Position numbers and translations under genes: made by a program. Below the pieces are notes generated by a model. The model saw only the letters and a list, made by a program, of their open reading frames with translations, did no database searches and was not told where the DNA came from. A stretch of DNA of 64,000 nt. Source: Escherichia phage vB_EcoM_PTE-Eco05. Positions 13,155 through 62,289 of the stretch are shown here, one piece after another (the stretch's first letter is position 1; each line of letters begins with the position of its first letter). The stretch lies in the sequence record PQ306573.1; one strand, written 5' to 3'.

Positions 13155-13488
13155 TCTCGATGATTTGAATCTAGAAATCGTTGATGAATCCCCTTCTTCG
13201 GAAGGGGAGGACATTCGCAAAGAACGAGTGTTTAATGAATCTCTTAAAATTATCCGTTCAGCAATGGAAAATGTCATTCAAGAGATTCTGATTACACTTG
13301 AAGACGGTTCCCATCATATAGTCTATATTACAAAACTAGACTGGGTCGATGGTAAAATCGTAATGGACTTTGCAGTTCTTGACCAGGACAGAAAAGCAGA
13401 ACTTGCACCACATGTTGAAAAATGTGTTACAATGCAAGTACAACAAGCTTTTAATGAACGAACCAAGAAAAAATTTAAATTCTTTTAA
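13147..13488 (+). CDS. 40: gp40-like protein (head vertex assembly factor position)
   Basis: Track ORF 13126..13488 trimmed to the ATG overlapping the uvsX end; about 113 aa; synteny uvsX-40-41. Confidence 0.55.
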   Translation: MNNLDDLNLEIVDESPSSEGEDIRKERVFNESLKIIRSAMENVIQEILITLEDGSHHIVYITKLDWVDGKIVMDFAVLDQDRKAELAPHVEKCVTMQVQQAFNERTKKKFKFF

Positions 13489-13497
13489 GGAGTTATC

Positions 13498-14940
13498 GTG
13501 GTAGAAATTATTTTGTCTCATCTAGTATACGACCAGGCTTATTTTTCTAAGGTCTGGCCTTATATGGATTCTGAGTATTTTGAGCGTGGACCGGCAAAAA
13601 ACGTCTTTAAAATTATAAAGAGCCACGTTAACGAATATAATGCAATGCCATCTATCAATGCATTAAAGGTGGCTTTAGATAACAGTTCTTTAACTGAAGC
13701 CGAATATAAAGGAACTTCAGACCTAATTGAAAAATTGGCTGATACTCCTGAAGACCACGAATGGTTGGTTAAAGAAACTGAGAAATATGTCCAGCAAAAA
13801 GCGATGTATAATGCTACGTCCAAAATCATTGAGATTCAGTCTAATGCTGAACTACCTCCAGAACAACGTAACAAGAAAATGCCTGACGTAGGAGCTATTC
13901 CTGATATTATGCGTCAAGCACTTTCAATTTCGTTTGATAGTTATGTTGGACATGACTGGATGGAAGACTACGAAGCACGCTGGCTTTCTTATCTAAATAA
14001 AGCACGTAAGGTCCCGTTCAAATTAAACATTCTGAATAAAATCACTAAAGGTGGTGCTGAAACCGGTACACTAAACGTTTTAATGGCAGGTGTTAACGTC
14101 GGTAAATCTTTAGGCCTTTGTTCACTTGCTGCAGATTATCTTCAAACAGGTCATAATGTTCTTTATATTTCCATGGAAATGGCTGAAGAAGTTTGTGCTA
14201 AGCGTATAGATGCAAACATGCTTGACGTATCACTCGATGATATCGATGATGGTAACGTATCTTATGCTGAATATAAAGCCAAGATGGAAAAATGGCGTTC
14301 AAAATCCACATTAGGACGTTTAGTAGTTAAACAGTATCCTACTGGTGGAGCTAATGCTAATACATTTCGTGCATTGCTTAATGAGTTAAAACTTAAGAAG
14401 AACTTTGTGCCATCTGTAATCATGGTTGATTACTTAGGTATTTGTGGGTCTTGTCGTATCAGAGTTTACACTGAAAATAGCTACACATTAGTTAAAGCTA
14501 TCGCAGAAGAACTTCGTGCATTAGCAGTAGAATCTGAAACAGTTCTATGGACTGCAGCTCAAGTAGGACGTGCAGCATGGGATGCTTCAGACATGAACAT
14601 GAGTGATATTGCAGAATCAGCAGGTTTACCAGCAACGGCAGATTTCATGTTGGCCGTAATTGAAACCGAAGAACTTGCACAAGCTGAACAACAACTTATC
14701 AAACAAATCAAATCACGATACGGTGATAAGAATAAGTGGAATAAATTCCTGATGGGTGTACGTAAAGGCAACCAGAAATGGATTGAGATTGAGCAAGAAG
14801 GCATGAACACACCTAACACAGTAAATGAAAACGCAGGTGCTCAGATGCGTCAGGCAGAGGTGAATCGTACGGAACGCGTAGGTAAAGCCAAAGCAACACG
14901 TGCTGACCTAGATAGCTTAGCCAATGAGTTAAAATTTTAA
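13498..14940 (+). CDS. 41: Replicative DNA helicase gp41 (DnaB-like)
   Basis: 480 aa; GTG start after aaggag RBS; Walker A GVNVGKSLGL; DnaB-family motifs. Confidence 0.92.
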   Translation: MVEIILSHLVYDQAYFSKVWPYMDSEYFERGPAKNVFKIIKSHVNEYNAMPSINALKVALDNSSLTEAEYKGTSDLIEKLADTPEDHEWLVKETEKYVQQKAMYNATSKIIEIQSNAELPPEQRNKKMPDVGAIPDIMRQALSISFDSYVGHDWMEDYEARWLSYLNKARKVPFKLNILNKITKGGAETGTLNVLMAGVNVGKSLGLCSLAADYLQTGHNVLYISMEMAEEVCAKRIDANMLDVSLDDIDDGNVSYAEYKAKMEKWRSKSTLGRLVVKQYPTGGANANTFRALLNELKLKKNFVPSVIMVDYLGICGSCRIRVYTENSYTLVKAIAEELRALAVESETVLWTAAQVGRAAWDASDMNMSDIAESAGLPATADFMLAVIETEELAQAEQQLIKQIKSRYGDKNKWNKFLMGVRKGNQKWIEIEQEGMNTPNTVNENAGAQMRQAEVNRTERVGKAKATRADLDSLANELKF

Positions 14941-14945
14941 TAAAA

Positions 14946-14968
14946 AGGAGACTTCGGTCTCCTTTCGG
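14946..14968 (+). terminator. Rho-independent terminator after gene 41 (aggagac ttcg gtctcct)
   Basis: 7-bp stem, UUCG loop, followed by ttcggggttt. Confidence 0.6.
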
Positions 14969-14969
14969 G

Positions 14970-14999
14970 GTTTACATCTTCCTCTAGGCATGATATGAT
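14970..14999 (+). promoter_or_regulatory. Early-type promoter (GTTTACA, about 17 bp, TATGAT)
   Basis: -35 GTTTACA and -10-like element upstream of ORF 15029; spacer tcttcctct is complementary to the downstream RBS agaggaa. Confidence 0.5.
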
Positions 15000-15028
15000 G
15001 TACTTACACCAACCAAGAGGAAAACATT

Positions 15029-15403
15029 ATGAATATGTCTCAAGCAATTTTTACTGCAATCACCGAAAACACAACTGTTGAAGTAGTTTCTCCGCTGGCA
15101 ACCTACGTTATTCTTGCTCCTAAAACTATTGTATCTCGTATGGAAAACATGGGCAAACGTATCGTACAAATTGTTGGAGCCGGAAATCAAAAACTTGATT
15201 ATCTGCGAACCATCAAAGCTTATGAACATTTCCAGCTCGAAAAAGGTTCTCCTATCCAGGTAGAACTCGTAAATGGTGATATCGTTCGAGCAATGTTCCA
15301 TCATTTCTATGCATTGAATGACCCATCTAAAGCGGTTCGTTTGATTGCATATGACGCAAACCAAAACGAAATCAACGCAGATATATCTAAATTACGTTTT
15401 TAA
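15029..15403 (+). CDS. Hypothetical protein (124 aa)
   Basis: ATG with agaggaaaa RBS. Confidence 0.55.
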   Translation: MNMSQAIFTAITENTTVEVVSPLATYVILAPKTIVSRMENMGKRIVQIVGAGNQKLDYLRTIKAYEHFQLEKGSPIQVELVNGDIVRAMFHHFYALNDPSKAVRLIAYDANQNEINADISKLRF

Positions 15404-15436
15404 GTTTACTTCTCCAGTAGTTGTGTTATTATAGAC
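15404..15436 (+). promoter_or_regulatory. Early-type promoter (GTTTAC, spacer, TATTATAGACC)
   Basis: Part of a recurring GTTTAC(A), about 17 bp, TAtAGaCCTATCA architecture; embedded in a 14-bp inverted repeat. Confidence 0.5.
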
Positions 15437-15458
15437 CTATCAACTACTGGAGAACAAA

Positions 15459-15776
15459 ATGAAAACCATCGATTGTAAAGCAGAATTTAAGATTTTTTAT
15501 CACGGTTCAAGTAGTTCAGCTAACATCGAAAACATGCTTTGTCCTCCTGAAGAAACAGGAGTTCTGTCTGAAACTGGACGTAAGAAAAACTTGGATCGTG
15601 TATTCTTTACTGAAGATATCGGTTTAGCAAAGATTTATGCAGGACGAGCAGCACGCTCTTATGGAGGTGAACCACGTCTCTATCGAGTAATTTCTCCGGT
15701 AGATGTAGTTCAAATGAATGATACTAAAGGTGCTACAGTTTATCACGCTGAATGGGCATTTTGCGAGGAAATATGA
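15459..15776 (+). CDS. Hypothetical protein (105 aa)
   Basis: ATG 5 nt after ggagaa RBS. Confidence 0.55.
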   Translation: MKTIDCKAEFKIFYHGSSSSANIENMLCPPEETGVLSETGRKKNLDRVFFTEDIGLAKIYAGRAARSYGGEPRLYRVISPVDVVQMNDTKGATVYHAEWAFCEEI

Positions 15777-15961
15777 GCAAATTAACTAAAGTTACTTTTA
15801 TTGGCTGGTTTAAAAGCGGTGAGATGTTCACTAAAGATATCATGTTATCAGGTGATCGTGAAGAAATCGAGTGGGTTGCGGTACAACTTGCTGAAGTGAA
15901 CAACGCATTAGTTAAAGCATTTGTTAATGACGAGAAAGTTTTCGAAGCAGATTTTCGATAA
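15773..15961 (+). CDS. Hypothetical protein (62 aa)
   Basis: Track ORF 15752..15961 trimmed to the ATG overlapping the upstream stop, with gaggaa RBS. Confidence 0.45.
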   Translation: MSKLTKVTFIGWFKSGEMFTKDIMLSGDREEIEWVAVQLAEVNNALVKAFVNDEKVFEADFR

Positions 15962-15974
15962 TTTTAAAATAACT

Positions 15975-16006
15975 GTTTACAAGCCCCACATACTGTGTTA
16001 CTATCT
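15975..16006 (+). promoter_or_regulatory. Early-type promoter (GTTTACA, spacer, TTACTAT)
   Basis: GTTTACA 52 nt upstream of ORF 16033. Confidence 0.45.
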
Positions 16007-16032
16007 TTCTATCAACTACAGAGGAAATTGAA

Positions 16033-16401
16033 ATGAAAAAATTAATCGCTTTAGCAATGGTATTTGGATTAACCGGATGTGGTGCTCATGGCTTTATCCC
16101 TAATAACGTTGGCCAACTGATTTACAATCCGAATGTTAAACAATATGAACAACCTAAAGTTGAAGTGGAAGACCCGGTTACTGTAGGTAATCGAATGATT
16201 CAAGCTGATGCTCATGCTCAACGTTATCGTGATTCTGATACTGTAGCATTGTCAAAAGAACAACGCGTTAAAGAACATTGTCTACAGGCTACTGAAATCG
16301 CATTCATTCGCTATGTTGAAACAACTGGTAAAGAGCCTACCCAGAAACAAATCGCGAATAACTACGTCCAGTGTATTGAACGTTTAAACAAATTTAATTA
16401 A
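16033..16401 (+). CDS. Predicted lipoprotein (122 aa)
   Basis: Signal peptide with lipobox LTGC (MKKLIALAMVFGLTGCG). Confidence 0.6.
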   Translation: MKKLIALAMVFGLTGCGAHGFIPNNVGQLIYNPNVKQYEQPKVEVEDPVTVGNRMIQADAHAQRYRDSDTVALSKEQRVKEHCLQATEIAFIRYVETTGKEPTQKQIANNYVQCIERLNKFN

Positions 16402-16404
16402 TTG

Positions 16405-16440
16405 GTTTACACCAAAGTTAAAATAAGATACTATAAACAT
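16405..16440 (+). promoter_or_regulatory. Early-type promoter (GTTTACA, spacer, TACTATAAA)
   Basis: GTTTACA and -10-like element upstream of ORF 16463. Confidence 0.45.
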
Positions 16441-16462
16441 AACAAATCAAGAGGAAATTAAC

Positions 16463-16711
16463 ATGGAATTATTCGTAGCTAGTTCAGTAGCAGTTTTAAT
16501 CGCAGGTATTGGTTCAATCATCATTTACATGTTGCCTTGGGTAATCGCACTTATTCGTGGCACAAAAAGCACAACAGCAATCTTCTTTGTATCTTTGCTC
16601 TTTAACTGGACGATGATTGGTTGGATTGGAACTTTAATTTGGTCTATCGTTGCCGAAAAGAAATCTGCTCAGCAGCCTCAACAAGTAATTATTATTCGCG
16701 AAAAAGAATAA
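16463..16711 (+). CDS. Small inner-membrane protein (82 aa, two predicted TM helices)
   Basis: Hydrophobic segments VAVLIAGIGSIIIYMLPWVIALI and IFFVSLLFNWTMIGWIGTLIWSIV. Confidence 0.55.
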   Translation: MELFVASSVAVLIAGIGSIIIYMLPWVIALIRGTKSTTAIFFVSLLFNWTMIGWIGTLIWSIVAEKKSAQQPQQVIIIREKE

Positions 16712-16715
16712 ACTT

Positions 16716-16750
16716 GTTTACATTATAGATGGACTATAGTATAGTAGTCC
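16716..16750 (+). promoter_or_regulatory. Early-type promoter (GTTTACA, spacer, TATAGTAGTCC) overlapping palindrome GGACTA/TAGTCC
   Basis: Seen directly; same extended -10 block recurs at about 36781, 37293 and 57015. Confidence 0.5.
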
Positions 16751-16774
16751 TATCAAATCAACTAAGGAGTTAAA

Positions 16775-17068
16775 ATGAAAAAGTTATCATTGGCAGCAAT
16801 CTTACTTGCAGTATCATGTGCACCGGCTCCAGTTACGGCAGGTTATGATAAAGACCTCTGTGAGTGGTCAATGACTGCAAATCAAGAAGATGTTGAACAA
16901 CAAATCTTCTCTGATATCATGAACATCACTAAACGAGACCGTCCTAATATGGTTAATAAAGTTGTTGAACAACTTAAGTCTGGCGGTATCATGCAGTACA
17001 ACTATGTTTTGTATTGTGACCCTAATTTCGATAACAAAGATATCGTAACCGAAATCACAGGTGAATAA
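16775..17068 (+). CDS. sp: Secreted periplasmic protein, Spackle (sp)-like superinfection exclusion factor
   Basis: 97 aa with cleavable signal peptide (MKKLSLAAILLAVSCAPAPVTA); size and position between 41 and 61 match T4 sp; identity from memory, not verified. Confidence 0.55.
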   Translation: MKKLSLAAILLAVSCAPAPVTAGYDKDLCEWSMTANQEDVEQQIFSDIMNITKRDRPNMVNKVVEQLKSGGIMQYNYVLYCDPNFDNKDIVTEITGE

Positions 17069-20562: not shown

Positions 20563-20591
20563 AAGGAATCCTTCGGGATTCCTTTTTTTTT
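20563..20591 (+). terminator. Rho-independent terminator (aaggaatcc ttcg ggattcctt followed by T8)
   Basis: 9-bp stem, UUCG loop and an 8-9 nt T tract seen directly. Confidence 0.85.
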
Positions 20592-21921: not shown

Positions 21922-22082
21922 AAGAGAAATTTAAAGAGAAATTCTTACTAGAAATCAAGGAAAAAGACTTTGAGACATGGTATCGAATGGTGAAAGGGTT
22001 GACATTGCTTTTTAAAGCATCGTTATTCATGTTAGAACAACCTGGCCCTGATGGTCCTTTAGTAGGAAAGCTTAAAAAGTAG
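21918..22082 (+). CDS. Hypothetical small protein (54 aa), below ORF-track cutoff
   Basis: ATG overlapping upstream stop; uninterrupted frame up to the next promoter. Confidence 0.3.
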   Translation: MKEKFKEKFLLEIKEKDFETWYRMVKGLTLLFKASLFMLEQPGPDGPLVGKLKK

Positions 22083-22113
22083 TTTACATTCCCTCCTCTC
22101 GTGTTATGATAGG
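22082..22113 (+). promoter_or_regulatory. Early-type promoter (GTTTACA, spacer, TTATGATAGG)
   Basis: GTTTACA 55 nt upstream of ORF 22138. Confidence 0.45.
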
Positions 22114-22137
22114 CTTATCTTTAAATGGAGGTCTATC

Positions 22138-22719
22138 ATGATATGTCAATCTGAACTTCAAGAACGCGAATATCTCGCAGCACTAATTGATGATAAATTC
22201 ACTAAACAAGAACAAAACATTCTCTGGGCTTGCACCGATTCTAAGGAAGACCCGGATTTCCACTATGAATTAGACCATCTTGTTCGTAAGCATATGACTT
22301 CTACAGTACCAGTAGAACTCTACCGCGGTGTAACTCCAGAAGAAGTAGAACGTCTTTCACTTCTTTCTGTTGGATGCCATTGGTCTCCTGGACGAGTAAC
22401 ATCGTTCACAACTGATTTCAGTACAGCTCGTCAATTCTCTGGGAGTTGGGAATATCAGACGTATACTATTCTTAGTCTCAGGAATGCTCCATTCATTTTT
22501 GATTACTACCAAAACATGGTTAACATTGTACTCGCCGGAAAGAACCCTAAGCATGTTATAGAAGAAAAGCGTGTTGACGTCCTAGATATGATTGAATCTG
22601 AACAAGAGTACATGGTCTCAGGTATCTCTAGATTTGAGATTGTGGAAATTGAAGACTTAGAATATGACCCTTTATCTCGATTATACAAAATCATTCATTT
22701 GAAAATGTTGAATTTTTAG
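22138..22719 (+). CDS. Mono-ADP-ribosyltransferase (ModA/ModB-like), copy 1
   Basis: 193 aa; R-S-ExE architecture: YRG, S-T-A-R, and EQEYMVSG. Confidence 0.55.
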   Translation: MICQSELQEREYLAALIDDKFTKQEQNILWACTDSKEDPDFHYELDHLVRKHMTSTVPVELYRGVTPEEVERLSLLSVGCHWSPGRVTSFTTDFSTARQFSGSWEYQTYTILSLRNAPFIFDYYQNMVNIVLAGKNPKHVIEEKRVDVLDMIESEQEYMVSGISRFEIVEIEDLEYDPLSRLYKIIHLKMLNF

Positions 22720-26600: not shown

Positions 26601-26630
26601 GTTTACAACCAAGGATGGTTGGAGTATAAT
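26601..26630 (+). promoter_or_regulatory. Early-type promoter (GTTTACA, 17 bp, TATAAT)
   Basis: Near-consensus GTTTACA and TATAAT seen directly. Confidence 0.55.
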
Positions 26631-27558: not shown

Positions 27559-27590
27559 GTTTACTTCTCCTCCGGTTTTGATATTATAAC
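27559..27590 (+). promoter_or_regulatory. Early-type promoter (GTTTAC, spacer, TATTATAAC); spacer ttctcctc complementary to downstream RBS gaggagaa
   Basis: Seen directly; 8-bp perfect complement between 27565..27572 and 27602..27609. Confidence 0.5.
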
Positions 27591-27613
27591 CATATCAACC
27601 AGAGGAGAATAAT

Positions 27614-28081
27614 ATGTTAGTTTACCGCGTAGAACGTAGTTTTTGTACTCAACGTGAATCATTACCAGGAATTGCTATCGAAGATGGTAAAGCCGTCAGA
27701 ATTTGGGAAACCTCTTGGAATAAAGAACCTCGTTCGCCATACGGTTGGTCGGGCACCGACAACTCTGAAGAAACATGGGAGTTCCTTGATAAGCATGGAA
27801 TACTCTCAGGTAACTTCTACCATCACGGCGACAACTATAATGTCCCTAATCGTCCTACAGTAAATGAAGACAAACTCCTTGAACAAAATATCTTAAGATA
27901 CTATAGAATTGAGCACACATTTGAATTGAGTGAAGATTGGGCTCAAGGGTTCTATTTTGGATTTGAAAGTGTTGACGCGGTTTATGCATGGTTTGATGAC
28001 CAGGTGGATGTTGAACTCTTGAAAGCTAAAGGATACTACATCGCGGTCTATGAAGCACCTGATTTCATCCTCGGAAGTTGA
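27614..28081 (+). CDS. Hypothetical protein (155 aa)
   Basis: ATG after gaggagaataat RBS. Confidence 0.55.
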   Translation: MLVYRVERSFCTQRESLPGIAIEDGKAVRIWETSWNKEPRSPYGWSGTDNSEETWEFLDKHGILSGNFYHHGDNYNVPNRPTVNEDKLLEQNILRYYRIEHTFELSEDWAQGFYFGFESVDAVYAWFDDQVDVELLKAKGYYIAVYEAPDFILGS

Positions 28082-28138
28082 CAATTAATGTTTAGACGTT
28101 CATTGGCAGAACAAGTTGATTTTATTTTGCTAAAATGA

Positions 28139-28172
28139 TGTACAACAACTATGGTCTATGATACTATAGACC
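28139..28172 (+). promoter_or_regulatory. Early-type promoter (TGTACAA, spacer, TACTATAGACC)
   Basis: Conserved TATAGACCTATCA block; partial palindrome ggtctat/atagacc. Confidence 0.4.
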
Positions 28173-28195
28173 TATCAAAACAAGAGGAGAATATT

Positions 28196-28423
28196 ATGAA
28201 ACGTCAAATCATTAAAAACGTAACTACTGATTCAAACATCGATGAGTTTGAAGATGTTCTGTTTAATCCTGATTTAGTTGTTGTACAGAAAAACTGGACT
28301 GAATTTTTATGCTACACTGAAGTGGTTTACGTTTACGAAAAACTCGGCGATGAAATGCCTATCTATGGTATCTTCCGTGAAATCACTGAAAACGGTACAA
28401 CTTATTGGAAGGAAACTTACTAA
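28196..28423 (+). CDS. Hypothetical small protein (75 aa)
   Basis: Track ORF 28151..28423 trimmed to ATG after aagaggagaatatt. Confidence 0.45.
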
Positions 28424-29017: not shown

Positions 29018-29443
29018 ATGGCTTTTAAAGGTTTTGAAGTTGGTAAGAAATATCGTATTATCAAAGGTCAAGAAGATAATTTCTTGAGAATTCTTAATAC
29101 GACTGGTAAACGTCTTAATACTAATCTGCATACTACTTTATTGTCCAAAGATTTTATTGTGGAAGAGATGATTGGTTACGGTGTTTCGGTTATTGCTGTA
29201 GAAGCCGTAGGCGATTATGGCCGAACTATTCATAGTATGCAAGGTGATATTCTGCTTTATGGTGCAGAATTTAAATTCTTTGAAGAAGTTCAGGAACCAG
29301 ATACAGCTGTCGATTTCAAAAAAGGCTCTATAGAATTTGTTGATGGTTCGGTGATCGTATCAGGCGATGTGGTCATTACAGTTAAAAGTGAACAAGGGCG
29401 TTTGGCTGCAATTGATGCACTTCAGAAAATTAAATTTAAATAA
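29018..29443 (+). CDS. Hypothetical protein (141 aa)
   Basis: ATG 2 nt after upstream stop; followed by terminator. Confidence 0.55.
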   Translation: MAFKGFEVGKKYRIIKGQEDNFLRILNTTGKRLNTNLHTTLLSKDFIVEEMIGYGVSVIAVEAVGDYGRTIHSMQGDILLYGAEFKFFEEVQEPDTAVDFKKGSIEFVDGSVIVSGDVVITVKSEQGRLAAIDALQKIKFK

Positions 29444-29460
29444 GGGCTTCGGCCCTTTTT
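29444..29460 (+). terminator. Rho-independent terminator (gggc ttcg gccc followed by T5)
   Basis: GC stem, UUCG loop and T tract seen directly. Confidence 0.65.
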
Positions 29461-29506: not shown

Positions 29507-31324
29507 ATGATTAAAAATGAAATTAAGGTATTGTCAGATGTAGAACATATTAAGAAACGTAGTGGTATGTATATTGGTTCTTCTGCTAAAGAAGCACATG
29601 AGCGTTTTTTGTTTGGTAAATATCAACAAGTTGAATATGTTCCTGGTCTGGTTAAATTAATCGATGAGATTATTGACAACTCGGTTGATGAAGCTATTCG
29701 TACATCATTTAAGTTTGCAAATAAAATTGATGTGCAAATTAAAAATAATCAAGTTTCGGTGGAAGATAACGGACGTGGTATTCCTCAAGGTTTAGTTACC
29801 GACCAAACAGGTGAACAAATTCCTGGGCCTGTAGCAGCCTGGACTATTCCAAAGGCTGGTGGTAACTTTGGTGATGATTCTGAACGCAAGACTGGTGGTA
29901 TGAACGGCGTCGGGAGTAGTTTAACTAATATCTTCTCTACGTTGTTTACAGGCATCACGTCAGATGGCGAAAATGAAATCACTGTTAACTGTTCAAACGG
30001 AATGGAAAACAAATCATGGTCTTCTAAGAAATCTAAAGGTAAAGGCACTAAAGTAATCTTCACTCCTGATTTCACTTCATTTGAAGAGCATAATTTATCT
30101 CAAATTTATTTAGATATTACTTTAGACCGACTTCAAACATTGGCAGTCGTTTATCCTGATATCAAGTTCACATTTAATGGTAAAAAGGTTGATGGTAATT
30201 TTAAACGATTTGCTAAACAATTTGGTGAAGATAACATCATTCAAGAAAATGATAAAGTCTCTATAGCATTCACAACATCACCCGATGGCTTCCGTCATTT
30301 AACTTATGTGAATAACATCCATACTAAAAATGGTGGTCATCATGTTGAATGTGTAATGGATGATATCTGCGAACATCTTTTACCGGGTATTAAAAAGAAA
30401 TATAAGGGTATTGAAGTCACTAAAGCTCGTGTTAAAGAATGCCTCACAATGTTGATGTTTATTAGAGACATGAGCAACATGCGTTTTGATTCTCAGACTA
30501 AAGAACGTTTAACGTCAACGTATGGTGATATTCGTAATCATATCCAATTAGATGCTAAAAAAATTGCTCAGGCACTTCTTAAAAACGAAGCCTTGATTAT
30601 GCCTATTGTTGAAGCAGCATTAGCTCGTAAATTGGCAGCAGAAAAGGCTGCAGAAACTAAAGCAGCTAAAAAGGCAACTAAAGCTAAGGTTCATAAGCAT
30701 ATTAAAGCTAACCAATGTGGTAAAGATGCAGATACGACATTGTTCTTAACAGAAGGTGATTCTGCAATTGGTTATCTCATTGATGTTCGTGACCGTGAAC
30801 TACACGGTGGATTCCCATTACGTGGTAAGGTGATGAATAGCTGGGGTATGTCATATGCTGATATGATGAAGAACAAAGAGCTCTTCGATATCTGTGCTAT
30901 CACAGGTCTTATTCTTGGTGAAAAGGCAGAGAATACGAACTATCGTAATATTGCAATTATGACCGATGCCGATCACGACGGTCTTGGAAGTATTTATCCT
31001 GCTTTGCTTGCTTTCTTTAGTAATTGGCCCGAATTGTTTGAACAAGGACGTATTCGCTTTGTTAAAACACCTGTAATTATTGCACAAATTGGCAAAACTC
31101 AAAAATGGTTTTATACTGTAGCTGAGTATGAAGAAGTTAAAGATACACTGCCTAAGCATAGTATTCGATACATCAAGGGATTAGGCTCCCTTGAAAAGTC
31201 AGAGTATCGTGAAATGATTCAGAACCCTGTGTACGACGTAGTTAAACTTCCTGAAAATTGGAAAGAACTCTTTGAAATGTTGTTGGGTGATGATTCAGAA
31301 CTTCGTAAAGAATGGATGTCCTAA
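29507..31324 (+). CDS. 39: DNA topoisomerase II large subunit, unsplit gp39 (GyrB-like ATPase plus Toprim plus C-terminal segment)
   Basis: 605 aa; GHKL ATPase N-terminus, Toprim LFLTEGDSA and MTDADHDG, C-terminal YIKGLGSL...ELFEMLLGD (GyrB tail) all in one ORF. Confidence 0.9.
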   Translation: MIKNEIKVLSDVEHIKKRSGMYIGSSAKEAHERFLFGKYQQVEYVPGLVKLIDEIIDNSVDEAIRTSFKFANKIDVQIKNNQVSVEDNGRGIPQGLVTDQTGEQIPGPVAAWTIPKAGGNFGDDSERKTGGMNGVGSSLTNIFSTLFTGITSDGENEITVNCSNGMENKSWSSKKSKGKGTKVIFTPDFTSFEEHNLSQIYLDITLDRLQTLAVVYPDIKFTFNGKKVDGNFKRFAKQFGEDNIIQENDKVSIAFTTSPDGFRHLTYVNNIHTKNGGHHVECVMDDICEHLLPGIKKKYKGIEVTKARVKECLTMLMFIRDMSNMRFDSQTKERLTSTYGDIRNHIQLDAKKIAQALLKNEALIMPIVEAALARKLAAEKAAETKAAKKATKAKVHKHIKANQCGKDADTTLFLTEGDSAIGYLIDVRDRELHGGFPLRGKVMNSWGMSYADMMKNKELFDICAITGLILGEKAENTNYRNIAIMTDADHDGLGSIYPALLAFFSNWPELFEQGRIRFVKTPVIIAQIGKTQKWFYTVAEYEEVKDTLPKHSIRYIKGLGSLEKSEYREMIQNPVYDVVKLPENWKELFEMLLGDDSELRKEWMS

Positions 31325-31340
31325 GCTCCTTCGGGAGCTT
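31324..31340 (+). terminator. Stem-loop (agctcc ttcg ggagct) after gene 39, weak T tract
   Basis: 6-bp stem with UUCG loop, followed by cattttaatttt. Confidence 0.45.
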
Positions 31341-35927: not shown

Positions 35928-35950
35928 GGGGACTTCGGTCCCCTTTTTTC
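35928..35950 (+). terminator. Rho-independent terminator (ggggac ttcg gtcccc followed by T6)
   Basis: Seen directly after rIIB. Confidence 0.8.
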
Positions 35951-36756: not shown

Positions 36757-36790
36757 GTTTACAACTAAGTAGGACTATGATATAGTAGTC
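36757..36790 (+). promoter_or_regulatory. Early-type promoter (GTTTACA, spacer, TATAGTAGTCC) with palindrome AGGACTA/TAGTCCT
   Basis: Seen directly. Confidence 0.5.
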
Positions 36791-36812
36791 CTATCTAAAA
36801 GAAGATAACATC

Positions 36813-37268: not shown

Positions 37269-37302
37269 GTTTACAACAAGGTAGGATTATGGTATAGTAG
37301 TC
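37269..37302 (+). promoter_or_regulatory. Early-type promoter (GTTTACA, spacer, TATAGTAGTCC) with palindrome GTAGGA/TCCTAC
   Basis: Seen directly. Confidence 0.5.
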
Positions 37303-37326
37303 CTACTGAAACATGAGGAACACAAA

Positions 37327-38251: not shown

Positions 38252-38391
38252 TGATTAAGAAAATCTTAGCAGGAGCCTTCGGGCTCTTGTTGTTGCTTAC
38301 GGTTCTGTACTACGGTGTGATGTTTGGACTAATCCAAGTAGTGCTTTTCATTTCAGATGTTATAATGGTTATTCGTTCATTAATATGGTGA
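38251..38391 (+). CDS. Small hydrophobic peptide (46 aa)
   Basis: MIKKILAGAFGLLLLLTVLYYGVMFGLIQVV...; start overlaps previous stop. Confidence 0.3.
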   Translation: MIKKILAGAFGLLLLLTVLYYGVMFGLIQVVLFISDVIMVIRSLIW

Positions 38392-39721: not shown

Positions 39722-39797
39722 GTGCCCTAGCCTTAGGATTTCTCGGTGCAATAGCTGCACTAGTGATTTGGCTGTATTGGTTGGACAAACATGATTA

Positions 39798-39817
39798 GGG
39801 AGCTTCGGCTCCCTTTT
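39798..39817 (+). terminator. Rho-independent terminator (gggagc ttcg gctccc followed by ttttg)
   Basis: Seen directly after gene 52. Confidence 0.7.
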
Positions 39818-39841: not shown

Positions 39842-39874
39842 GTTTACATGTGCTTCAAACATGATATTATAGAC
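39842..39874 (+). promoter_or_regulatory. Early-type promoter (GTTTACA, spacer, TATTATAGACC); contains a TGCTTCA MotA-box-like heptamer
   Basis: Seen directly upstream of motA. Confidence 0.5.
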
Positions 39875-56492: not shown

Positions 56493-56515
56493 GGGAGACT
56501 TCGGTCTCCCTTTTG
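56493..56515 (+). terminator. Rho-independent terminator (gggagac ttcg gtctccc followed by tttt)
   Basis: Seen directly after gene 32. Confidence 0.8.
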
Positions 56516-56541: not shown

Positions 56542-56575
56542 GTTTACTTCTTCCCTGGATGTGTTAGTATAGACC
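56542..56575 (+). promoter_or_regulatory. Early-type promoter (GTTTAC, spacer, TAGTATAGACC)
   Basis: Seen directly upstream of ORF 56600. Confidence 0.5.
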
Positions 56576-56599: not shown

Positions 56600-56992
56600 A
56601 TGGAAATCGGAAAATCTTATATCATTAACCCTTTATTTAAAGATGACTTTGTTCAAGAAGCACCACACAATAACGCTAAGATGTTAAAATTGATTGAACT
56701 CCACGGGCCTAGTTTTGTTGTAAACGGAATGAAACCTGATTATGATAGCGATACGTCAAACGTAGTAAGTGTAACTATGGAAGATGGTACTGTATGTTCT
56801 GCCGGTGGTGAAATTGAAACTTATTTTGAGATTTATTATGATGAGTTCAAATACTTTACTGAGGTAGATTTAGTAAAGCCTCAACCTACTAACGAAGGTA
56901 TAACTTTAGGTATAACAAAAATCCATTGTATCGTAGATGAAACTAACGTCGACGAAATCATCAAACTTTTGCAAAAAACTTTTAAAAAGTAG
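56600..56992 (+). CDS. Hypothetical protein (130 aa)
   Basis: ATG after catgaggaaatcaaa. Confidence 0.55.
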   Translation: MEIGKSYIINPLFKDDFVQEAPHNNAKMLKLIELHGPSFVVNGMKPDYDSDTSNVVSVTMEDGTVCSAGGEIETYFEIYYDEFKYFTEVDLVKPQPTNEGITLGITKIHCIVDETNVDEIIKLLQKTFKK

Positions 56993-57025
56993 TTTATAAC
57001 AAGATAGGGCTATGTTATAGTAGTC
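56992..57025 (+). promoter_or_regulatory. Early-type promoter (GTTTATA, spacer, TATAGTAGTCC)
   Basis: Seen directly. Confidence 0.45.
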
Positions 57026-57054
57026 CTATCAAATCAAAAGTGAAGGAGAATAAA

Positions 57055-61533: not shown

Positions 61534-61578
61534 AGTACACAGACCGTTAATAAATAATCCATAACAAGAGGAAAAGTT

Positions 61579-62289
61579 ATGGATTATTCTAAAATTTACA
61601 ATAACCTTATTTCTAAAGCTAAGAATAGAAAATTAGATTGCTATACCGAATCACACCATATTATACCTCTGTGTATTGGTGGTTCTGATACAAAGGAAAA
61701 CCTGGTAGATTTGACACCAGAAGAGCATTACATAGCTCATCAATTATTAGTAAAGATATATCCAGATAATCATAAATTGATATTTGCCGCTAATATGATG
61801 TGTGTTTATTCTAAAGATAATATTGAACGAAAGAACACCAATAAACGCCATGGGTGGCTTAGAAGAAAATTGGCTATTTCTGTATCTGAAAATAATAAAG
61901 GCAAACCAGCTTGGAACAAAGGTATTCCTATGTCTCCAGAAGTTAAATCTCGACTTCAAACATCTTGGGTGTTTACATTTCCGGATGGTCATGAGGAAAT
62001 TCATCGAGGTCTTAACGAATTTTGTAAAGAGCATAATTTAAATCCATCTGCAATGTCAGCCGTTTGTAAAGGTAAACGGGCGCATCACAAAGGATTTAAG
62101 TGTAAGAAATTGGATAAGATTTCAGAGCTTGATAATTTAGTTTTCGTCAGTAAACCTCATCCAAAGGGATTAAAACCCCATAACTTAATTGCTGTAAAAA
62201 TAAACGGTATAGAATATCAATCAATACATCGAGCATCTAAAGCTTTAGGAATTACTAGAAAAAAGGTAGAAGAATTAAATGAATATTGA
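61579..62289 (+). CDS. HNH homing endonuclease inserted within nrdA
   Basis: 236 aa; HNH motif ESHHIIPLCIGGSDTKENLVDLTPEEHYIAH; C-terminal putative DNA-binding modules; own RBS aagagga. Confidence 0.8.
   Translation: MDYSKIYNNLISKAKNRKLDCYTESHHIIPLCIGGSDTKENLVDLTPEEHYIAHQLLVKIYPDNHKLIFAANMMCVYSKDNIERKNTNKRHGWLRRKLAISVSENNKGKPAWNKGIPMSPEVKSRLQTSWVFTFPDGHEEIHRGLNEFCKEHNLNPSAMSAVCKGKRAHHKGFKCKKLDKISELDNLVFVSKPHPKGLKPHNLIAVKINGIEYQSIHRASKALGITRKKVEELNEY

Follow-up and report, generated by a model that had tools for sequence, protein, structure and literature searches.

In the 64,000-nucleotide (nt) stretch of Escherichia phage vB_EcoM_PTE-Eco05 that was analysed (PQ306573.1; hereafter the window, 64 kb), three early promoters carry, in the part that their own transcripts are predicted to lack, a segment complementary to the translation initiation region of the gene that follows. 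Folding predicts that RNA arriving from upstream would close a hairpin over the Shine-Dalgarno sequence (SD) or the start codon, and that RNA born at the embedded promoter would leave them open. On balance, we consider it probable that these sites are self-gating cassettes of early promoter and ribosome-binding site (RBS), forming a subset of the promoter-early stem-loop (PeSL) cassettes of T4-like phages. The view that the pairing itself is under selection is supported by four lines of comparison, namely promoter-leader chimeras, covariation, a mismatch bias and the conservation of the modB hairpin.

The whole analysis was computational. The window belongs to an RB69-like (Mosigvirus) T-even phage in which early transcription runs along the + strand, and all of its gene-proximal GTTTAC-type early promoters were scanned, 17 of them being usable. 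Accessibility was expressed as the free energy required to hold the SD and AUG (-14 to +3) unpaired, in read-through RNA and in promoter-initiated RNA. The first nucleotide of the latter was placed at the usual distance of 7 nt after the -10 box, so that starts come from consensus spacing and not from mapping. As a null for accessibility, the promoter spacer alone was shuffled (100 shuffles per site), and leader fold energies were expressed as z-scores against 200 shuffles.

Site 1 consists of promoter P15404 and the open reading frame (ORF) at 15459:

15404..15409, + strand: -35 box GTTTAC of early promoter P15404, T4/RB69 early consensus
15410..15423, + strand: left arm (anti-SD) TTCTCCAGTAGTTG, the first 14 nt of the 17-nt P15404 spacer
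15427..15432, + strand: -10 box TATTAT preceded by TGn, in the hairpin loop; predicted start ~15439
15441..15454, + strand: right arm CAACTACTGGAGAA, holding the SD GGAG (15449-15452)
15459..15776, + strand: candidate gated gene, 105-amino-acid protein of unknown function (phrog_2110)

The promoter as a whole, GTTTAC-N17-TATTAT with TGn, agrees with the early consensus of T4 and RB69 (PMC2988021, PMC1524935), and its -35 box starts 1 nt past ORF 15029-15403, which lies upstream and has its stop codon at 15401-15403. As the initial annotation had pointed out, TTCTCCAGTAGTTG (15410-15423) is the perfect reverse complement of CAACTACTGGAGAA (15441-15454), with the SD in the right arm and the ATG at 15459. 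This stem is the longest perfect short-range inverted repeat of the window, where a back-of-envelope estimate gives about 0.02 expected perfect 14-mers with a loop of at most 45 nt. The read-through leader has a minimum free energy (MFE) of -25.0 kcal/mol (z = -4.4, 0/200 shuffles) and contains the predicted stem; the promoter-initiated leader is essentially unstructured (-1.0 kcal/mol). Opening the SD and AUG costs 19.9 kcal/mol on read-through RNA versus 3.9 kcal/mol on the promoter's own transcript, and none of the 100 spacer shuffles (4.4±1.3 kcal/mol) attained the observed 19.9. The stem is followed by CAAAAUG, with no U-tract, and the SD region GGAGAACAAAA (15449-15459) is an exact fit to GGAGRAYARAA, the cleavage consensus of RegB (PMC1702504).

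The same arrangement was found at site 2, formed by promoter P27559 and the ORF at 27614:

27559..27587, + strand: early promoter P27559, with -35 box GTTTAC (27559-64) and -10 box TATTAT (27582-87); predicted start ~27594
27565-77, + strand: left arm TTCTCCTCCGGTT, inside the P27559 spacer
27597..27609, + strand: right arm AACCAGAGGAGAA, holding the SD of ORF 27614
27614..28081, + strand: candidate gated gene, 155-amino-acid protein of unknown function (phrog_1106)

The 8-bp repeat described there before (27565..27572 / 27602..27609) is present, as part of a 13-bp stem that contains a single C·A mismatch (27565-77/27597-609). Read-through and promoter-initiated leaders again differ, the former folding with an MFE of -23.4 kcal/mol (z = -3.1) that includes the predicted stem and the latter being essentially unstructured (-0.9 kcal/mol), and the cost of opening the SD and AUG is 15.0 versus 1.6 kcal/mol. 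Spacer shuffles gave 6.3±1.8 kcal/mol, with 0/100 attaining the observed value. UAAUAUG follows the stem, without a U-tract, and the SD GGAGAAUAAUA (27604-27614) nearly fits the RegB consensus. ORF 27614 is confined to very close relatives (3 near-identical loci). The C·A arises from a C at window position 27573 opposite 27601; the near-identical relatives L080, L095 and L103 have a T there and a perfect 13-bp stem, and judging from them the C is a recent single substitution that weakens the predicted site 2 stem.

A further strong case of masking, absent from the initial annotation, is the promoter of modB, which encodes an ADP-ribosyltransferase:

22082..22115, + strand: modB early promoter, with -35 box at 22082-87 and -10 box TATGAT at 22105-10; predicted start ~22117
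22100-22115, + strand: left arm, comprising the spacer end, the -10 box and the discriminator; the predicted start lies downstream of it
22130..22145, + strand: right arm, comprising the 3' end of the SD GGAGG, the AUG (22138-40) and codons 2-3

Here the opening cost is 15.7 kcal/mol on read-through RNA versus 5.1 on the promoter's own transcript, with 99-100 of 100 spacer shuffles remaining lower, and the helix is found in both the MFE and the centroid folds. Moreover, the modB hairpin is maintained with differing sequences in T4 (AUAGCUUC/GGAGGCUAU), RB69-like phages (AUAGRCUU/GGUCUAU) and JS98-like phages (AUGACCUC/GGAGGUCAU), where opening costs are 13.6-16.9 versus 2.1-5.1 kcal/mol; a single-protein locus search for ModB contributed 3 loci to this comparison.

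All three inverted repeats of the initial annotation are thus present in the DNA, the third one at the following promoter:

14970..15028, + strand: promoter GTTTAC-N18-TATGAT, with TTCCTCT (14979-85) / AGAGGAA (15016-22)

At this site the opening cost is 6.5 versus 2.7 kcal/mol, a value matched by 12-14 of 100 spacer shuffles (4.7±1.6 kcal/mol), and the 7-bp stem does not appear in the MFE structure of the read-through leader (z = 0.05). Site 3 was rejected as a case of gating, being no better than chance by both folding and spacer shuffles. The proposal that transcripts from upstream would fold a hairpin burying the RBS therefore stands for sites 1 and 2, by folding and by accessibility, and not for site 3; likewise, folding of read-through and promoter-initiated leaders, which had been suggested as a check, placed the stems of sites 1 and 2 in the read-through leaders only and gave no such stem at site 3. 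A hairpin with a UUCG tetraloop (14944-14965), followed by a short T-run only, lies just upstream of site 3.

The arrangement had also been said to seem systematic, which overstates its frequency, as 3/17 gene-proximal early promoters (15404, 27559 and 22082) strongly mask the translation initiation region. Masking by early promoters in the window is recurrent, not systematic. Smaller effects were obtained at 22719 (4.9 versus 0.9 kcal/mol) and 23460 (7.5 versus 5.0 kcal/mol), both above nearly all spacer shuffles, and at 56542 (9.8 versus 2.2 kcal/mol), which does not exceed nearly all of them. This last site (UUCUUC/GAGGAA) had been picked by eye as a candidate and was rejected because its fold is not robust (z +1.6, not in the centroid).

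The same accessibility measure was applied to T4 (AF158101), covering 212 genes on the early strand. Among genes without an early promoter the proven hairpins came out at the top, namely segB (16.4 kcal/mol), 49 (15.6), e (15.5), I-TevI (14.3) and soc (9.1), for all of which RBS-sequestering structures are documented (PMC2988022, PMC3014915). Values of at least 10 kcal/mol were found for 10/34 early-promoter-proximal genes versus 14/178 other genes (Fisher p = 0.0012), the ten early genes being:

regB, 18.8 kcal/mol
alc, 16.9 kcal/mol
modB, 16.6 kcal/mol
alt.-3, 16.1 kcal/mol
nrdC.8, 15.7 kcal/mol
motB.2, 15.2 kcal/mol
ndd.4, 14.0 kcal/mol
e.8, 11.8 kcal/mol
denV, 11.2 kcal/mol
30.8, 10.6 kcal/mol

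In 9/10 of these the partner of the SD lies inside the promoter's own spacer, and the effect is abolished by spacer shuffles; in T4 modB the partner is the -10 region. The 15-20 kcal/mol of the window sites are of the same size as, or above, the values of the proven T4 hairpins. At two T4 loci, 166749-166764 (ndd.4) and 136275-136278 (alc) of AF158101, the annotated start differs from the ATG with the best SD spacing. The annotated ndd.4 ATG lies 13 nt past the -10 box and has no SD; 15 nt further downstream, an ATG in the same frame has GGAGGAAC-N4. The start annotation may be off.

Evidence that the pairing is selected came, on the one hand, from chimeras in which 50 promoters (T4 plus window) were combined with 50 leaders. 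Own promoter-leader pairs reached at least 10 kcal/mol in 13/50 cases versus 7.1% of 2450 swapped pairs, a difference equalled in 0/20,000 permutations, which argues that the effect is more than a generic pyrimidine motif opposite a purine-rich SD. On the other hand, covariation was examined at the level of cassettes, since ORF 27614 occurs in 3 near-identical loci alone and the homologues of ORF 15459 have not kept the long stem. The pattern GTTTAC-N-TCTCC-N22-24-ATCAAC, which leaves the variable part of both arms unconstrained, retrieved 76 IMG/VR loci, and 28 distinct T-even cassettes, standing before at least 7 different genes, made up alignment A1. The left arm of site 1 corresponds to columns 7-20 of A1, and helix 7-20/40-53 (= 15410-23/15441-54) has a covariation score of 0.219, compared with 0.086±0.013 after column shuffling (0/500 reach 0.219, a count that is not a probability, the rows of A1 not being phylogenetically independent) and at most 0.069 when the partner was slid. 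Two rows (L135 and L068) were mis-registered by MAFFT and count against the structure. Compensatory changes on both sides of the helix form five pairs, namely AGTAG/CTACT, ATTAG/CTAAT, TGTAG/CTACA (T4 denV), TCATG/CATGA and TCTGGTT/AACCAGA, and one-sided changes in the TCTCC/GGAGA core are all U·G. What is robust in the covariation is how many different compensatory arm types occur, at least five.

The mismatches at interior positions of the promoter inverted repeats, scored without gaps and with an equal penalty for every mismatch, were 13 G:T, 2 A:C and 4 other. Such a bias of G:T over A:C points to selection on the helix of the sense RNA rather than on duplex or cruciform DNA.

One cassette, L129 (IMGVR_UViG_641509422_000001), combines an ATTAG-type left arm with a CTACT-type right arm and gene, leaving one base pair broken. 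Comparison with L076 and L101 fits an exchange within the loop of the hairpin, the kind of recombination suggested for the shuffling of PeSL cassettes.

In the mechanism that we propose, the non-transcribed part of the promoter (the spacer or, in modB, the -10 box and discriminator) carries an anti-SD plus a gene-specific extension, which together are the complement of a translation initiation region lying 20-40 nt downstream. A polymerase coming from an upstream promoter would transcribe both arms, and the resulting 13-16-bp hairpin over the SD (in modB, also over the AUG) would close once made and block binding of the 30S subunit. RNA from the embedded sigma-70 early promoter would start between the arms and, lacking the left one, would have an open RBS. 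Each gated gene would thus be translated essentially from its own promoter alone, while early promoters fire, and its output would be independent of transcription spilling in from upstream. The claim of the initial annotation that promoter-initiated transcripts lack the left arm is borne out at sites 1 and 2 by its position inside the promoter's own spacer, upstream of which the start site cannot lie: the promoter includes the left arm, and RNA initiated at it cannot contain that arm. Read-through should be available, since the terminator scan found no terminator-like site between the upstream promoters (14970 and 26601) and the hairpins; in 10/13 hairpin promoters 0-11 nt separate the end of the preceding ORF from the -35 box. 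We infer that the hairpin would form in vivo and block translation, and that insulation or temporal restriction would be the selected benefit. Likely consequences would be the confinement of expression to the few minutes in which early promoters fire and the insulation of the promoter-gene module from upstream transcription, which would suit cassettes that move. The untranslated read-through RNA might, in addition, be exposed to Rho or shielded from RegB.

Positions 14000-17000 are 98.7% identical to Escherichia phage mogra and to many other Mosigvirus (RB69-like) T-even phages. The gene order is gene 41 helicase (end 14940), ORFs 15029-15403 and 15459-15776, dmd, imm, sp, gene 61, soc, modB, modA, srd, dda, dexA and motB-like genes, the two ORFs being insertions between gene 41 and dmd relative to T4. 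The start of dmd overlaps the stop of ORF 15459 (ATGA, 15773-15776). Here dmd has no promoter of its own; that of T4 has one, with a -10-enclosing hairpin, directly past gene 41. Through its overlap with the stop of ORF 15459, dmd may share the fate of the gated ORF.

Besides the SD-directed stems, the window contains a second class of promoter hairpins (16716-16775, 36757-36812, 37269-37326, 56992-57054 and ~28136-28196), whose inverted repeats (e.g. TAGGACTAT...ATAGTCCTA) enclose the -10 box alone and leave the SD untouched; their right arm lies at roughly +1 to +12, and their loops measure 8-10 nt. T4 has many such -10-enclosing hairpins (dmd, ipI, ipII with a perfect 14 bp, mobD.2, 30.7), and they probably correspond to the PeSL stem-loops.

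Several results weigh against the proposal of self-gating cassettes. Strong masking occurs at just ~3/17 promoters of the window, the arrangement concerns roughly a fifth to a quarter of early promoters and not all of them, and the third site cited before is not significant; many sister promoters have equally good hairpins that enclose the -10 box alone and never reach the SD, so that part of the selection on these cassettes is for the hairpin as such. Homologues of ORF 15459 (50 loci) do not retain the long stem, those of JS98-like phages keeping TCTCC/GGAGA alone (5-6 bp) and one relative lacking the left arm altogether while the right one is present. This ORF can therefore do without the gate, and the three outermost pairs of the 14-bp stem 15410-23/15441-54 are specific to the window's lineage. 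Moreover, the sole nearby source of read-through at site 1 is another early promoter 430 nt upstream, and a gate fed by an equally early source would alter dosage or insulation and not timing, unless transcripts leak through the UUCG hairpin past gene 41. Absence of an upstream terminator is associated with hairpin promoters just as a trend (1/13 versus 11/37, p = 0.15). Finally, the support is computational, with start sites placed by consensus spacing, and the selected purpose could differ, be it translational gating, nuclease shielding or a generic function of PeSL stem-loops.

This last alternative, in which the stem-loop attenuates or terminates incoming transcription and offers homology for shuffling of ORFan cassettes, its overlap with the SD being incidental, we regard as unlikely. 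In its favour, the -10-enclosing stems at 16716, 36757, 37269, 56992 and ~28140 fall short of the SD, the cassette stands before at least 7 different genes with L129 as a chimera of left and right arms, and the gated ORFs, inserted relative to T4, vary between lineages. Against it are the facts that the stems lack a U-tract and are not intrinsic terminators, that those directed to the SD use loops of 15-25 nt versus 8-10 nt in the -10-enclosing ones, which is costly for a mere hairpin, that every SD-class stem has the anti-SD core in its left arm, and that own leaders pair far better than swapped ones; recombination homology, for its part, needs neither intramolecular complementarity nor tolerance of G·U. 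In any case, membership of the PeSL class is compatible with translational gating and not a replacement for it. A reading of the stems as intrinsic terminators also deserves low weight, there being no U-run after them and none having been called by the terminator scan. The exact fit of site 1 (GGAGAACAAAA) and near fit of site 2 (GGAGAAUAAUA) to the RegB consensus, the masking arrangement of T4 regB itself and the fact that RegB is blocked by structure would agree with a shielding role, in which the hairpin hides an intergenic GGAG or nearby RNase E/G sites on polycistronic RNAs, so that long RNAs survive for downstream genes (e.g. dmd) and promoter-proximal early RNAs stay cleavable. We nevertheless find shielding quite improbable as the explanation, as T4 denV has the hairpin though its GGAG is RegB-resistant through its 3' context, and the modB helix covers chiefly the AUG and not the GGAG; besides, shielding and translational masking are the same physical event, which makes the former an added consequence more than an alternative.

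Translational coupling, whereby ribosomes ending at the upstream stop would melt the base of the stem where the SD is paired and so enable downstream initiation, draws on the geometry of site 1. There, 15403 is the last position of the upstream stop and 15410 the first of the TTCTCC arm, a distance that the mRNA channel of a terminating ribosome would span, and the pairs with GGAGAA would open first. Nine further base pairs would nevertheless stay closed at this site, the left arm of site 2 starts 11 nt past the stop (T4 regB and most others are similar or farther), distances at which the ribosome would reach at most one pair, and in several cases the upstream ORF ends more than 50 nt away, all of which makes coupling very improbable. 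Equally little credence can be given to a palindrome acting at the DNA level (operator or cruciform, or a quasi-palindrome from templated mutation) or to pyrimidine-motif hitch-hiking without function. The roughly symmetrical placement of the arms around the -10 box, the TCTCC directly past the -35 box common to the whole promoter family, the chance level of the third site and the loss of the stem in some lineages are what would be expected from it, but arm sequences vary between promoters with no common operator, the 13 G:T versus 2 A:C are a strand asymmetry unexpected for duplex or cruciform DNA, at least five independent compensatory arm variants exist, and neither spacer shuffles nor swapped chimeras reproduce the pairing.

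Self-gating by these early promoters has a close parallel in the control of T4 late genes (e, soc, 49, I-TevI/II/III and segB, and mobE of Aeh1), where long transcripts fold a stable helix that hides the SD and/or AUG, and a promoter inside or just past the 5' arm gives a shorter, helix-free RNA that is translated (PMC2988022; PMC3014915). Shared with it are the predicted SD/AUG helix on upstream RNA at 15404, 27559 and 22082 (not at 14970) and the placement of the promoter so that its transcript loses the 5' arm, with computed opening energies that are alike. Differences concern the internal promoter, which is late in the known T4 cases (gp55, TATAAATA) and a sigma-70 early one in the window (GTTTAC-N17-TAnnnT), and the 5' arm, for which, unlike in the T4 late genes, the promoter supplies its own spacer or -10 region. 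The outcome would differ too, since late gating in T4 delays expression, whereas the window elements would confine it to the immediate-early period or insulate cassettes; moreover, the early-promoter version recurs as a movable cassette before many genes, unlike the T4 late-gene cases. According to one review, the T4 genes regulated in this way 'are all late genes' (PMC2988022), and the 2010 reviews list late genes alone for the promoter-in-hairpin mechanism (PMC2988022, PMC3014915).

The window elements are clear members of the PeSL class (Arbiol 2010; Comeau 2014), with which they share an AT-rich upstream region, a strong early promoter of sigma-70-like type that contains or overlaps a stem-loop, an SD and ATG at the 3' end, variable ORFans and recombination between cassettes (L129). 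In the parts of those two papers available as searchable text, the stem-loop is described as a terminator or attenuator and a substrate for recombination, and the words 'ribosome' and 'translation' do not occur. These parts also place the T4/PST stem-loops upstream of the promoter. The window stems lack U-tracts and are complementary to the SD specifically. As for RegB targets (GGAGRAYARAA), the masked SDs are likewise of GGAG type with an A-rich 3' context, and structure blocks RegB; its control is nonetheless a trans-acting cleavage, while the window element is an RNA structure in cis that is also present at a RegB-resistant SD (T4 denV). No earlier description of hairpins between early promoters and SDs was found in the literature searched, the older T4 primary papers and the Miller 2003 review being outside its scope; masking by early promoters may possibly have been described in the older T4 literature. 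The RB69 genome paper makes no mention of hairpins at its 57 predicted early promoters.

A plausible best reading of these comparisons is that the logic of T4 late-gene control would have been transplanted to early promoters and built into PeSL-type cassettes. A broader generalisation, which we put forward tentatively and stop short of calling probable, is that T-even phages harbour widespread mobile, 'self-insulating' early cassettes in which the spacer doubles as an anti-SD and the gene is translated from its own promoter alone. If so, promoter-ORF modules would be context-independent when shuffled, and potent or toxic early functions (regB, alc, modB and denV in T4; ORF 15459/dmd, ORF 27614 and modB in the window) would be held to the immediate-early period. 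Such control would extend to about a quarter of the early promoters of T4, as a general layer of early regulation that is not in the reviews examined. The shut-off of early protein synthesis and the lack of additive over-expression from densely packed tandem early promoters have been explained only in part (PMC2988021, PMC3014915). A rule by which only RNA born at this promoter is translated would add a simple cis-encoded layer to T4 regulation, would account functionally for some of the conserved PeSL stem-loops, and would explain how promoter-ORFan modules can move between contexts with their output unchanged. T4 is the reference system for phage gene regulation; the rule is directly testable on its genes regB, alc, modB and denV, and the cassette would be a ready-made design for the synthetic insulation of genes in operons.

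Rfam 15 at the gathering threshold gave 0 matches across the whole window, and Pfam gave no matches. A number of other structures were observed in the window. Palindromes lie inside promoter spacers at 26607-26620 (AACCAaggaTGGTT) and 39848-39862 (ATGTgcttcaaACAT), involving neither the -10 box nor an SD. At 61553-61565 / 61576-61588, two 13-bp arms form a perfect inverted repeat around a loop of 10 nt that holds an SD (AAGAGGAAAA), with an ATG (GTTATGGATTATT) in the right arm; this is a further candidate for a translational structure, differently designed. Finally, ten UUCG-tetraloop hairpins (2503-2522, 13189-13208, 14944-14965, 20563-20584, 29442-29457, 31323-31340, 35928-35943, 38273-38286, 39797-39814 and 56493-56510) are mostly intergenic, several being followed by T-runs (terminator or RNA-stabiliser type, as in T4) and several having GGAG within the stem.

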